Shown here piece after piece: positions 9,122 to 13,703 of a DNA stretch of 64,000 bases (positions are counted from its first letter, which is position 1; each line of letters opens with the position of its first letter). The DNA is from an uncultured Chlamydiae bacterium (GTDB taxonomy: Bacteria; Chlamydiota; Chlamydiia; Chlamydiales; JAJFMA01). Location of the stretch: the NCBI GenBank assembly GCA_963713615.1, contig CAVQMM010000001.1, forward strand, positions 3,296,001-3,360,000. Reading direction: 5' to 3'. Both the position numbers and the translations under genes were made by a program. The notes below the pieces were generated by a model. The model did not search any database, had not been told where the DNA came from, and saw only the letters and a program-made list of their open reading frames with translations.

Positions 9122-9525
9122 CTTACGAGAATGGACATAATGAGGTAATTTCAGAAGTCCGATTTCCCGAAGTCAATTTCCTGAAAATCGGATGCTGGTG
9201 AAGAGAAAGCCATTCCCTTACCAGGCCCGAAGGGTCGATATTGCAACAGGCCAGGGCATCGCCCCATAGGCCTCAACCTAACAGGTCTTTTGAGCTTATA
9301 TCTCAATGACTTAGGACTTCACAATCGTATCTCGGCGCGCAGCGCTTTGGAGTGCGGTCGCTTGCGACCGCTTTTCGTTCCTTGGGACGGCAATGCTAAA
9401 CGGCATTGTATGGATTCGTCGAAGGCTGCATGTACTAACTATTTTACCCTTAGGGAATTATAGTAATGCCGTTGCACACGACCGTCGCAAGGAACCCAAA
9501 GCGGTCGCAAGCGACCGCACTCCAA

Positions 9526-11403
9526 CGGAAGTTCACCCCTAATTTCCCCACTACTTTGATCGTATTGTGATGAATATAAATGCTTTGCATCACTATTTTT
9601 CCGAAAAAATGTAGTCACTAAAATAATTATTCAAATATCATCTAAAATATATTGTAGATATATTTATTATGCGTATAATGTAGTCCAGTTATATGATGGA
9701 AACTGTATGTACATTGCAAAATCAACGTCCAAGTCTAAGTCTGGAAAGGTTTACGAGTCTATTTTGCTTCGTGAATCATATAGAGAGGGCACAAAGGTTA
9801 AAAACCGCACACTGGCTAATCTTTCAGGGTGTTCTAAGAGTGATATTGAGGCTATTAGGCTAGGTCTGAAACATAAGGACAATCCTACAATCTTGTCCAA
9901 GGACAGTTTTAGCATTGTTCAGGGCAGATCAGTTGGAGGAGTGTTCGTTCTAAAGCAATTGGCAGACAGTCTTGGGATCACAAAAGCCCTAGGTGATAGT
10001 TTCCACGCTAAACTTATCCTTTGGCTTGTCTTCGCAAGGATTCTTGAGCAAGGCTCTCGCCTGTCGGCGGCAAGACTGGTCCTAATCTATGATATTGCCT
10101 CCATAATCAACCTCAACCGAGGTTTTGATGAAAATGACTTTTATCAAAGCCTGCATTGGGTAGCCAAAAATCAAAGTTCCATTGAGAATTCGCTTTTCAG
10201 GCTTAGGCGTTATTCTGGGCAATTTTACTGGTACGATGTAACAAGCTCATACTTTGAGGGCACGCAAAATGCCTTGGCTGCCTATGGACACAACCGCGAC
10301 AAGAAGAAAAGAAAGAAGCAGGTCGTTATAGGGCTGTTAAGCATCAATAATGGAATGCCAGTCTCCGTCGAGGCCTTTGCAGGCAATACCCAGGACACTC
10401 TGACTTTTCAAAATCAGTTAGACAAAATTAAAGCCAGATTTGGCTGCAAGAACGTTGTCCTAGTTGGTGATAGAGGAATGATTCGGAACAAGCAGAAGCT
10501 ATTGCTAAAGGAATACGGGTTTGGATATGTCACAGCCTTGACTCTTCCTGAGATGAAATCGCTAATAGGCGCAGAGATTCTTTGTCTGGATACATTCACG
10601 AAAGATCTTCAATCGATTTGTCTTGAAGGCAAGAGATACATCTATCGGCGCAATCCTGGACGTGCTTTAGAAACCCAATCACAAAGAGAAGAACGCCTAT
10701 CTACCGCTCAAAGGCGCGTGGATCAAGAAAACAAAAAACTTGAGTCTAAGCCTACAATGTCAGCGGTGTTGGCAAAGAATCGAATACGACAATATCTAAA
10801 AAAACTATGCATTGCAGAGTGGGTCAGTGTTTCCGTCGAAAAAAGGCAATTACGTTTAGAGATCGACCAGGAGCGGCTAAAAGAAAAATCTAAGTTTGAC
10901 GGTTGTTACGTATGGACAACGGAATTAGGTAAGGAAGAAGCTTCTGACCTAGAAATTTTCGAACGATACAAAGACCTAAAATACGTTGAGGATGATTTCA
11001 GAACCTTCAAGAGCAATTTTTTGGAAATCAGGCCGATTTATGTAAGAACAGTAGAGAGCACCAAGGGGCACATATTTATCACTATGCTGGCTCATATGAT
11101 TGTAAGAGAGCTGCGTTCAAGGTTAGCTGAAGTAAATATGACTGCAGAAGAGGCCCTGCGAGTGTTAGGCCTTATATGTCAAAATTCAATAAAGTGCTCA
11201 GATGCGGTGACCATTGAAATGATCCCTGCCCCCTCCAAGGAGGCCACTAACATTTTGAGCGCTCTACAAATTACCATGCCAAAGCAAATCCAGGTGGCCA
11301 CAAGTAATGTAGTCACTAAACACAGGACAAGAAAAGGCCTCTAAAAGTCGAAAAATCAACACTTTAGGTAGGTGTTTTTTTCAAAAACAGGGGTGAACTT
11401 CCG
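9526..11403 (+). mobile_element. IS1634-family insertion sequence
   Basis: Perfect 15-bp TIR CGGAAGTTCACCCCT; 6-bp TSD CTCCAA (9520-9525, 11404-11409). Confidence 0.92.
9707..11344 (+). CDS. IS1634-family DDE transposase
   Basis: LLRESYREGTKVKNRTLANLS, YDVTSSYFEG, VGDRGM, YKDLKYVEDDFR..K..LEIRPIY. Confidence 0.92.
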   Translation: MYIAKSTSKSKSGKVYESILLRESYREGTKVKNRTLANLSGCSKSDIEAIRLGLKHKDNPTILSKDSFSIVQGRSVGGVFVLKQLADSLGITKALGDSFHAKLILWLVFARILEQGSRLSAARLVLIYDIASIINLNRGFDENDFYQSLHWVAKNQSSIENSLFRLRRYSGQFYWYDVTSSYFEGTQNALAAYGHNRDKKKRKKQVVIGLLSINNGMPVSVEAFAGNTQDTLTFQNQLDKIKARFGCKNVVLVGDRGMIRNKQKLLLKEYGFGYVTALTLPEMKSLIGAEILCLDTFTKDLQSICLEGKRYIYRRNPGRALETQSQREERLSTAQRRVDQENKKLESKPTMSAVLAKNRIRQYLKKLCIAEWVSVSVEKRQLRLEIDQERLKEKSKFDGCYVWTTELGKEEASDLEIFERYKDLKYVEDDFRTFKSNFLEIRPIYVRTVESTKGHIFITMLAHMIVRELRSRLAEVNMTAEEALRVLGLICQNSIKCSDAVTIEMIPAPSKEATNILSALQITMPKQIQVATSNVVTKHRTRKGL

Positions 11404-11699
11404 CTCCAAAGCGCTGCGCGCCGAGATACGATTGTTAGGCTTAGGTTGAGGCCTATGGGGCGTCGCCCTGGTATATTCCAGGAAGGGATTTCGCAGTCTG
11501 AAAGACTGCCATAAGGCACTTGTATAAATAGCGTGTGAATACAGACGTCTTGTGGCAGTCTTTCAGACTGCGAAATCCCCCTTGGCATATACCAGGGCGA
11601 TGCCCTGGCCTGTTGCAACATCGACCCTTCTACCATAGGATTTTGCAAACGATTATCGACGGTAATAGGAAAAGACAAAAAACATTTCTCTAAGGTATC

Positions 11700-11850
11700 A
11701 TTTTGGCCGACGAAGGTGTGGCCGTGTGCCCTTAGCGAATGTTTGTTCGCCTGGCCCGATATGCCGCCTTCGTCGTTTGCATCATCCAATAATTCCGTTC
11801 GGGATGGTGCCAATCTTCTGATTGTGGCTCTGTAAGTAGAAGTGGAATTT
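11700..11850 (+). ncRNA. Putative IS110 bridge RNA (target-binding and donor-binding loops)
   Basis: Stem 11708-16/11767-75 encloses GCCCTT, a hairpin and GGCCCGA (target guides); stem 11791-96/11844-49 encloses CGGGATG, a hairpin and GTAGA (donor guides). Confidence 0.8.
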
Positions 11851-11893
11851 GGGTGAAATTTAACGCTCACAAACACTTAACAGGGCATTTATC

Positions 11894-13090
11894 ATGCAAA
11901 ATCAGTCCGAACTTCGTATTTGTCTAGATATCGGTAGCGTTCGACACTATGTAGCCATAGGCTTGTCCACAGGAGAACGCATCGATGGATTTTATCTAAA
12001 CCACACTTCTGAAGACATTGAGCAGTTTTTTGAGAAAATTGAGAAGCTTAGAATTTCCTATAACATGCCTGTTGTCATGGCTATGGAGGGGTTTAATGGC
12101 TATGCTAGACCCATCGATAGATATGCTCTTGATCACGGATATTCTTTGTATAGTGTCAACAACATGAAATTGGCTAGATTTAAGGAAGTTTTTCCTGGTC
12201 CAGCCAAAACAGATCCAATTGACGCTTGGGCTATTTTTAGCTTGTTTCAAGTTCAAGAGACCTTACCGTTGGCAAAAAATATTCTGCAGAAAGTAGAGCC
12301 TCCACCGGTATGCAACGAGCAACTTAAACATATTTCAAGGCGTCGTAGAGAGTTGGTAAAAGAAAAGACAAGAATCATAAATCGACTTCAAGGGGATCTA
12401 CAGGCTGTTTGCCCCGGTCTACTGTCTATTACAAAAAATCCAGCAAATCTTTGGTTTCTACGATTTCTTGCTTCGAAGGAAGACATGACCATGTTGCTTC
12501 GAATGCAAAAAAGAAGCCTGTTGCAAATCAAGGGCGTTGGAGAGGTTTATGCAGAGGAAATTCAGAAATGGCAAAAGACGGCTAAGTTCTCTTCAAAGGT
12601 TGAGTGGATAGGAAAATTAATAGTACGAGATGTCAGAAGGCTACTCGAGATGCTAGATGAAATAGCGCAGTTGGAGGTATTGATAGAGGGTTTGATCCCA
12701 CAATCCAAGATAGCATCTCGGATTGAATCTATTCCTGGATATGGTTCCATTTGTGCCGCAGAACTCGCTGGAGAGATTGGTAGTATCGATCGGTTTAAGT
12801 CGGAGGCTAGTCTAGCGCTCTACTTGGGAATAGGAATTCTGAACAAGAGTTCTGGCCAATATGAGGGGTCTCGATCGCCTCGAAATATTAACTGGAGGGG
12901 AAAGGGAGCTATGATGACCGGAGCTGCTCGACATATACAACTATGTGATGAGGCTGCACAGTACTACAAGAAGAAGAGAGCAGAGGGAAAAAAACATAAC
13001 CAAGCAGTACGAGCATTTGCCCGTCATATGATAAGAGTAATATGGTCGATACTCATACATGACAGGGATTACCGTCAGAAGGAAGACTGA
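11894..13090 (+). CDS. IS110-family DEDD recombinase/transposase
   Basis: CLDIG, AMEG, KTDPIDA, SIPGYG, FKSEASLALYLG, NKSSG, YYKKKRAEGKKHNQA. Confidence 0.95.
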   Translation: MQNQSELRICLDIGSVRHYVAIGLSTGERIDGFYLNHTSEDIEQFFEKIEKLRISYNMPVVMAMEGFNGYARPIDRYALDHGYSLYSVNNMKLARFKEVFPGPAKTDPIDAWAIFSLFQVQETLPLAKNILQKVEPPPVCNEQLKHISRRRRELVKEKTRIINRLQGDLQAVCPGLLSITKNPANLWFLRFLASKEDMTMLLRMQKRSLLQIKGVGEVYAEEIQKWQKTAKFSSKVEWIGKLIVRDVRRLLEMLDEIAQLEVLIEGLIPQSKIASRIESIPGYGSICAAELAGEIGSIDRFKSEASLALYLGIGILNKSSGQYEGSRSPRNINWRGKGAMMTGAARHIQLCDEAAQYYKKKRAEGKKHNQAVRAFARHMIRVIWSILIHDRDYRQKED

Positions 13091-13169
13091 GTTAGTTTAG
13101 CAAACGGGCTTTGTTCTGTTTGGCCTGAATGAACAAGGTCAGCAAATTCGGCGATGTTAGCTGAGCAGA

Positions 13170-13283
13170 AAAGGAGCACGGCTACTCTGCTTCGGCAACC
13201 CCATAGGAGTTGTATACAACCTTCCTAAGTAAATTCACCGTGTCCCTTCGCAGTTGAAAGGAGCACGGCTACTCTACTTCGGC
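13170..13283. repeat. 27-bp direct repeat pair in the IS110 right end
   Basis: AAAGGAGCACGGCTACTCT(G/A)CTTCGGC at 13170 and 13257. Confidence 0.85.
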
Positions 13284-13703
13284 TCTATAAATTTAGCAAA
13301 ATTAGAAAATAATTAAAAGTTTCAAAACCGAAGGAATTGGCATCGAAAAATCGCCTGAAAGCTACGAAAAATCTTGAAAAATTCTAGCGGGATGTCGGGC
13401 CTGGGAAGTGATATAAGCCTGTGTCTCCAGAACCCGATAGTGTCACGCCATTTGAGCTCTCCAGAATCGCCGTCTCGCAAAAAAAGTAACCTTTTTTCTA
13501 AGAATCGATCCTTAAAGACTCAAATAATTTTGCATTTACCCCCTTAGGTCTTTTGGTCCATCCAAGAGCGACCGCTCCCTGCATTTCTCAACAACCCAAG
13601 CGAACAGCAATCTTGGATTATTTTGTTAAATCCTCTAACATTGATTTTTTTAAAATGACAATAATTAGACATCATTATATAATTTAATTAAAAGGGGGTT
13701 ACT

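Follow-up and report, generated by a model that had tools for sequence, protein, structure and literature searches.

Nested mobile elements in an uncultured Chlamydiae genome probably arose by insertion at fixed sites in smaller, high-copy repeats

Why do mobile elements lie one inside another at a single locus? The question is raised by a nest of elements in a 64,000-nucleotide stretch, hereafter the window, from an uncultured Chlamydiae bacterium (assembly GCA_963713615.1, contig CAVQMM010000001.1; C1:3296001-3360000 of a 3.97-Mb genome in three contigs, G000, with a completeness of 99%). The bacterium is probably an environmental chlamydia, as suggested by a homolog named Parachlamydiaceae and by the peat or soil origin of runs that contain its sequences. 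The neighbors of the nest are the gene for a seryl-tRNA synthetase and a small gene of the ParE type. [quoted passage not shown] Such small repeats had been proposed in the original prediction to act as shared safe-harbor landing pads. Comparison of sequences favors, with a probability of roughly 0.8, the reading that a chain operating across the genome has produced this nest among others: each element occupies a fixed site in a smaller repeat of high copy number, and the likely reason is that every transposase recognizes a specific target sequence of its own. The nest comprises the following features.

9142..13542, plus strand: shell of MITE A, with an empty length of about 430 bp; its family makes a 4-bp duplication, which is missing in this copy
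9214..13411, strand unassigned: hairpin doublet B, similar to a REPIN (REP doublet forming a hairpin), cargo of A
9265..11457, plus strand: MITE C, 309 bp when empty, with an IS231-subgroup end signature and an 11-bp duplication
9321..11435, strand unassigned: REP doublet D, cargo of C, with a GGAG foot and a hairpin with an 8-bp stem
9526..11403, plus strand: IS1634-family element, with a transposase gene at 9707-11344 (545 amino acids) and CTCCAA duplicated at 9520-9525 and 11404-11409
11631..13394, plus strand: IS110-family element, with a recombinase gene at 11894-13090 (398 amino acids) and the core TC at 11629-11630 and 13395-13396
11705..11860, plus strand: predicted bridge RNA in the left end of the IS110 element, with guides at 11727, 11753, 11800 and 11836

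Every predicted layer, with its inner duplication, was found as described. The ends of the window A copy are inverted (GAGGTAATT.. and ..TTTACCCC), and the arms of B lie at 9214-9264 and at 11458-11630 plus 13395-13411. The IS231-like mini-element announced in the left arm of B is C; it is bordered by GGGCATCGCCC (9254-9264) and GGGCGTCGCCC (11458-11468), an 11-bp duplication with one mismatch. The feet of D are at 9349-9352 (plus) and 9520-9523 (minus), and its listed extent, 9321-11435, exceeds the core palindrome by about 25 bp per side. The IS1634 element in D with its 6-bp duplication, CTCCAA, and the IS110 element in the right arm of B with TC on both sides were likewise confirmed. With IS1634 taken out, C measures 309 bp, which is the modal size among 60 copies in the genome, and stripping the nest of all layers leaves a form of 757 bp, with which many copies in the genome align over the full length. 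Layer removal had also been said to restore the layout of the A copy at 55098-58332; about 60 bp at one end of A, inverted repeat included, are missing from that copy.

Could the nest be an assembly chimera of collapsed repeats? The window A has no target duplication (TAAT on the left versus CTTA on the right), its halves resemble different copies, and no contig among 8 other runs spans the whole nest. However, the nest has intact inner duplications, contigs of those runs repeat its junction types, including an empty M site (M being a further MITE family) and an empty IS110 site, and one contig (X5, 13442-13592) joins the right end to unique flank. Moreover, 71 of the 114 inverted-end pairs of A in the genome likewise lack the 4-bp duplication, which is present in the other 43. 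A chimera is thus improbable. Because its left flank and left half are 98 to 100% identical to an IS-free sister locus (C1:2452891-2451960, near C1:2452564) and its right end is not, the window A is probably a recombinant, and the missing duplications in the family fit recombination between copies or mispaired ends, as expected. An orthologous empty allele was not obtained, matches to families A and C in 30 relatives being fragments of 25 to 57 bases only.

The evidence for fixed sites comes from the whole genome. All eight copies of the IS1634 element (IS1634-a) abut TTGGAG at the foot of D, in both orientations, and all nine copies of the IS110 element lie at one B site with the TC core, one of them in a B array outside A. 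Of the 18 copies of a 2295-bp IS66-family element located outside the window (IS66-b), 17 occupy one 8-bp site in the D hairpin. Families A to D form 414 clusters totaling 107 kb, i.e., 2.7% of the genome and 12.7% of the DNA outside open reading frames (ORFs). The enrichment check proposed with the original prediction, against the intergenic fraction, was run genome-wide, and landing in repeats far exceeded this 12.7% share for the three elements (binomial P values of 7e-8 for IS1634, 8e-9 for IS110 and 9e-15 for IS66-b). The IS copies use both D arms, both orientations, several shells including some other than A, and several single-nucleotide-polymorphism haplotypes; given this diversity, the insertions are largely independent.

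Other elements of the same genome behave differently. IS1634-b, 22% identical to IS1634-a, was beside a repeat at 1 of 9 loci, and four further IS families at 0/7, 0/7, 1/10 and 0/7; two small IS families had no common site in their flanks. IS66-a, the IS66 element of the window, is 63% identical to IS66-b and is not targeted, only one of its five scored loci having a repeat next to it; MITE M was beside repeats in 9/115 cases (P = 0.96) and is not enriched. The landing-pad proposal is therefore supported by the enrichment of IS1634, IS110 and IS66-b, but its terms “shared” and “family A” are not supported: each element has its own fixed B or D site, which also occurs outside A.

Random insertion with survival only in repeats, a passive safe harbor, is an alternative and corresponds to the original prediction read broadly. 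Junctions of the targeted families rarely fall in open frames of at least 150 codons (3/32, versus 16/45 for untargeted families; Fisher P = 0.014, with partial or interrupted IS copies left out of the scoring), and the repeats are almost all intergenic, with long ORFs on both sides at only 1 of 43 A sites. Selection would, however, neither fix the exact base of insertion nor differ between paralogs, and M and six further families are maintained at dispersed sites, those 16 junctions in long open frames among them. Recurrence to the base thus largely refutes this explanation, to which we leave the slightest chance of all those considered. As the targets are intergenic, elements that insert by fixed-site nesting would rarely break genes, and a benefit to host or element is plausible.

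Nesting by repeated insertion is also recorded in MITE C. IS231A has the target GGG(N)5CCC, and C uses an 11-bp GGC-N3-GCC site in the arms of B. It occurs in both arms and both orientations (28, 23, 9 and 9 among 120 A ends), and an 11-bp duplication is visible in 66 of 115 C end pairs. Its copies are nearly uniform (0.36% pairwise difference, 59 copies) within A shells that differ by 5 to 12%. Since uniform C occupies diverged A shells in four arm and orientation classes, at least 22 insertions of C into B are independent among 28 complete C-bearing copies. This count bears on a further possibility, namely that a single ancestral nested composite was copied whole by the transposase of A or by gene conversion. 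In its favor, at least 22 copies match 9142-9525 at 97 to 100%, A also forms tandem arrays, and there is a sister locus that is nearly identical. The four C configurations in diverged shells oppose it, as do the IS copies found in either arm, in either orientation and in hosts other than A, and the independent C insertions overturn whole copying as the main cause; it is very unlikely on that scale and may explain a minority of copies. Tandem A[B] arrays of 5 to 10 units with a period of about 455 to 475 bp lie at C1:476528-478848, 1173286-1175476, 2273505-2277795 and 2600815-2603417.

The ends of C match exactly the IS231-subgroup signature CAT-------AA--TAA, which goes with duplications of 10 to 12 bp (Table 1 of PMC2266710). 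C thus shares end signature, duplication length and target specificity with the IS231 subgroup of IS4; unlike these elements, it has no transposase gene, and it carries a REP doublet as cargo; a partner was not found in the genome. No autonomous IS4-type element with C ends was present among 31 PF01609 and 2 PF13546 matches in the genome. A sister MITE of the IS231 type, about 280 bp long and with a duplication of 10 bp, also carries D and is inserted at the foot of other D copies (C1:335213-335493, 2840976-2841259 and 3191161-3191437).

The outermost shell has its own target. Insertion sites of A fit GWC-N-[4]-N-GWC inside 9-bp GTCC/GGAC arrays, of which 85 with this period were found genome-wide; at least two GTCC/GGAC words are present at 84% of the 43 duplication-bearing sites versus 4% of random non-ORF stretches. 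Assignment of A to the MITEs of IS701 or ISH3 was rejected: the 4-bp duplication fits, and the ends match neither ---YACT nor CRGT. Inverted 9-bp GGAC/GTCC arrays also lie on both sides of two TIGR04258 four-helix-bundle genes (L145:1410-2070 and L146:1335-2210).

The innermost targets, B and D, appear to be REP-like repeats taken up as MITE cargo. Three D units lie on each side of a single-copy gene for a REP-associated tyrosine transposase (RAYT) at C1:3256780 (NF047646, 83.7 bits versus a cutoff of 80), and a B doublet array lies directly downstream of a single-copy Y1 transposase gene at C1:3243412. The latter scores as IS200-type (NF033573, 57.6 versus 55) and below the RAYT model (22.4 versus 80). 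The genome has six Y1 transposase matches, four of them with a visible repeat family. The 150 D doublets divide into 68 within C-like shells and 82 at other places; marks of other MITE shells accompany 50 of these 82. Like the REPIN/RAYT systems of PMC6006769, PMC8266576 and PMC3733652, as far as the consulted sections describe them, B and D are hundreds of inverted hairpin doublets clustered at single-copy Y1 genes. They differ by the GGAG foot of D, by the IS200-type neighbor of B and by the location of most copies in DDE-type MITE shells; in the sections consulted, the main texts of PMC6006769 and PMC3733652 make no mention of GGAG. Two further Y1 transposase genes (L007, L008) each have their own palindrome family on both sides.

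These data suggest an order of events. REP systems of neighboring Y1 (RAYT-type) transposases would have given rise to B and D. MITE shells would then have captured B and D doublets and spread into tolerated intergenic arrays, yielding about 350 copies of each target: A would have entered 9-bp GTCC/GGAC arrays, carrying B, and C the arms of B, carrying D. Elements with matching specificity could have followed, IS110 at the TC core of B, IS1634 at the foot of D and IS66-b in the D hairpin. In the simplest account, the DDE enzymes of IS1634 and IS66 most likely read the base sequence of the target directly, and the IS1634 lineage may have narrowed an ancestral YTNNAR preference to TTGGAG-TGCG.

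Elements of the IS1634 family are 1.5 to 2 kb long, with C-starting inverted ends and AT-rich duplications of 5 to 6 bp (De Palmenaer 2008, PMC2266710, consulted sections). IS1634-a resembles them by its transposase (NF033559, 290 bits versus a cutoff of 100), its length (1878 bp), its C-starting inverted ends and its direct 6-bp duplication, present in 6 of 7 full copies. It departs from the weak, AT-rich target typical of the family by using a single TTGGAG site at the foot of a REP in 8/8 cases. A 15-bp perfect direct repeat near both ends (9608-9622 and 11306-11320, one copy in the coding end) is possibly a transposase binding site; of 14 relatives compared, both targeted and untargeted, 10 have a similar word.

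Closer relatives of IS1634-a elsewhere hit this type of REP foot, and more distant ones do not. Among 80 metagenome loci, 12 of which have both ends and the duplication visible, L027 and L029 (58% and 57% identity) are located at TTGGAG before different GGAG-foot hairpins on two other contigs. All 10 relatives of 43 to 46% identity with a visible duplication are at ordinary, varied YTNNAR sites. Of 400 other genomes in the phylum, 18 have at least 10 copies of the REP motif. Genome G352, whose element is 64% identical, has 109 TTTGGAGTGCG motifs, and both visible IS ends follow TTTGGAG; its right-hand junction was searched for and not found, leaving one side visible. Genome G170 (46%) has one motif and 16 AT-rich IS ends. 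A quick tree of 42 rows groups the four elements associated with TTGGAG in a single clade of 19 rows (Shimodaira-Hasegawa-like approximate likelihood ratio test [SH-aLRT] support, 92), and untargeted elements in a separate 18-row clade. Other searches added little: a genome-contig scan with the single IS1634 protein gave one locus without flanks, none of 80 loci listed in a viral-contig pattern scan encodes an IS1634 transposase, and the best identity listed by tblastn against plasmids was 35%.

IS66-b is an IS66 element by its matches to the TnpA, TnpB and TnpC models, its GTAAGCG ends and its 8-bp duplication. It differs from the family by its near single-site hairpin target and by having TnpA and TnpB in one 193-amino-acid frame that matches both NCBIfam models (L107:1804-2385; C1, about 2865300-2865880). 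This fused frame is a candidate cause of its changed target choice. We would give even odds to a broader claim: a dedicated IS1634 clade of parasites of GGAG-foot REPs, cutting at the RAYT guide tetranucleotide, would have spread across unrelated bacteria; an IS66 lineage of the present genome, and not its 63% paralog, would have independently gained near single-site specificity for the same hairpin; and target-multiplying MITEs would make the whole a five-level food chain.

Several observations weigh against these interpretations. The IS1634 tree is a quick version whose rows were picked by likeness to the query, and the targeted clade is represented by four elements with visible flanks, that of G352 being one-sided. 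Targeting of the IS66-b type was seen at 0 of 29 relative loci, and none of 18 REP-rich genomes had an IS66 end at a REP, two pattern hits not being hairpin junctions. The foot of D is GGAG and not the canonical GTAG or GTGG (PMC6006769 and PMC8266576, consulted sections), so that D is classed as a REP-like variant. No autonomous partner of A, C or M was found in the genome, which is 99% complete. For the IS110 element discussed below, the guide-exposed fold of the predicted bridge RNA is 12 kcal/mol above the minimum-energy fold, and its left-target guide is a poorer match to the B variant carried by A than to the one beside the Y1 gene. The pattern could also have been sharpened by purifying selection. 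Finally, TTGGAGTGC, the IS1634-a site, has 367 occurrences in repeats and 37 outside, and the IS66-b 12-mer 353 and 7.

The last counts concern what the DDE enzymes recognize. The chain could be the same, with IS1634-a and IS66-b recognizing the extruded REP hairpin or a RAYT bound to it. The IS1634 site is at a hairpin foot in three unrelated sequences whose stem and upstream flank differ, the tetranucleotide within the six duplicated bases occupies the place at which a RAYT reads its guide (PMC8266576, consulted sections), and 0 of 8 IS1634-a copies are at the 37 non-repeat TTGGAGTGC sites. However, with 367 sites against 37, eight out of eight would often be expected from sequence reading alone, and the ancestral YTNNAR preference already accommodates TTGGAG. 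Furthermore, IS66-b is confined to one of two mirror positions of the hairpin, and its single off-target site partially matches the linear consensus in the absence of a D repeat. Hairpin recognition is therefore possible but doubtful, although the two readings are inseparable by such counts because nearly all matching sequences lie in repeats. An RNA guide was also considered and rejected for both elements, in which no match to the D site exceeds 8 bases.

The IS110 layer would find its target by means of an RNA. Its recombinase matches PF01548 and PF02371 (Transposase_20) and scores above the cutoff of NF033542, as a DEDD recombinase. The left end contains four predicted guides in order, for left target (11727), right target (11753), left donor (11800) and right donor (11836); an ordered four-guide match was obtained in 0 of 200,000 shuffled left ends. 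The only relative found in 400 other genomes, 60% identical, conserves the region and the donor guides; its left-target guide is different and fits its own flank, the right flank not being assembled. Bridge-RNA or seekRNA IS110 elements have a DEDD recombinase, a dinucleotide core and four guides in a noncoding end (PMC11208160 and PMC11187229, consulted sections). The window element shares these features and a REP target; it differs by its core, TC and not CT, by its two long ends of 263 and 304 bp, which have an inverted repeat that is imperfect and subterminal, and by a target that is a REP-like doublet in a MITE. Because the guide architecture equals that of PMC11208160, the IS110 layer is of the known bridge-RNA kind, and the element is predicted to find B by a bridge RNA from its left end. 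No Rfam match was obtained within 8600-13800. The circle joint was not found in the contigs of the 8 runs, which cannot show absence, and contigs of two RNA runs cover parts of the element at low depth, which shows neither transcription nor ends. A bridge RNA in the right end, suggested by a 7-base match and a 27-bp repeat, was rejected: conservation in the relative is limited to the left end, where all four guides lie. The 27-bp direct repeat (13170-13196 and 13257-13283) is missing from the 60% relative, and elsewhere in the genome an IS66-a copy is inserted at this repeat region.

Targeting of REPs is known for five families, IS3, IS110, IS4, IS256 and IS5 (Tobes & Pareja 2006, PMC1525189; PMC3184786). 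Examples are IS1397/ISKpn1 and ISPsy8 (IS3), IS621, ISPa11 and ISPpu9/10 (IS110), and ISRm22 (IS4); the consulted sections of PMC1525189 do not mention IS66 or IS1634. Searches of the open literature, ISfinder and subscription journals not being covered, gave no prior account of REP targeting by IS1634 or IS66. IS1272 likewise targets inverted repeats (PMC5678879, consulted sections). As in the known cases, all or nearly all copies in the present system lie at one position of a high-copy intergenic palindrome; unlike in those, three autonomous families and two MITEs use two REP families, and the REPs ride in MITE shells. Two large DDE families would thus join the list, IS1634 with a cross-genome clade, and MITEs acting as amplifiers of the targets of other elements would explain deep nests without chance or host benefit. 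IS66-a and IS66-b, of opposite behavior in one genome, and the sister clades of IS1634 make target choice directly testable. If confirmed, they would provide matched pairs of targeted and untargeted enzymes for finding the basis of site specificity in DDE transposases.

The window contains further copies of these families outside the nest.

8752..8868, minus strand: isolated A-type end upstream of the nest, also present at the sister locus near C1:2452670
8962..9121, plus strand: MITE M copy 1, 160 bp, with GGCC ends and an 8-bp duplication with one mismatch
22340..22499, plus strand: MITE M copy 2, which splits the outer end of a D fragment
55098..58332, minus strand: second A[B] copy, one end truncated
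55157..58015, minus strand: IS66-family element (IS66-a, the untargeted paralog), inside the second A copy

Neither the sister locus nor one contig from another run has M copy 1. The predicted position of M copy 2 in a D fragment proved correct, with CGATTGTG duplicated, as did the IS66 insertion in the second A copy, with GGAAAGAC duplicated. A different short, repeated, palindrome-like sequence (55040-55097) adjoins the truncated end of that copy. Elsewhere in the window are a 2758-amino-acid ORF at 39524-47800, with secretin domains confined to its last 750 residues, and, at 49187-54706, 60231-63951, 226-1767 and 13920-14291, genes for an RHS-repeat protein, two Sel1-repeat proteins (one with a RhoGAP domain), a Fic protein and a ParE-type protein. 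The small contig of the assembly has a 10.7-kb internally repeated stretch (G000:C3:17419-28098).

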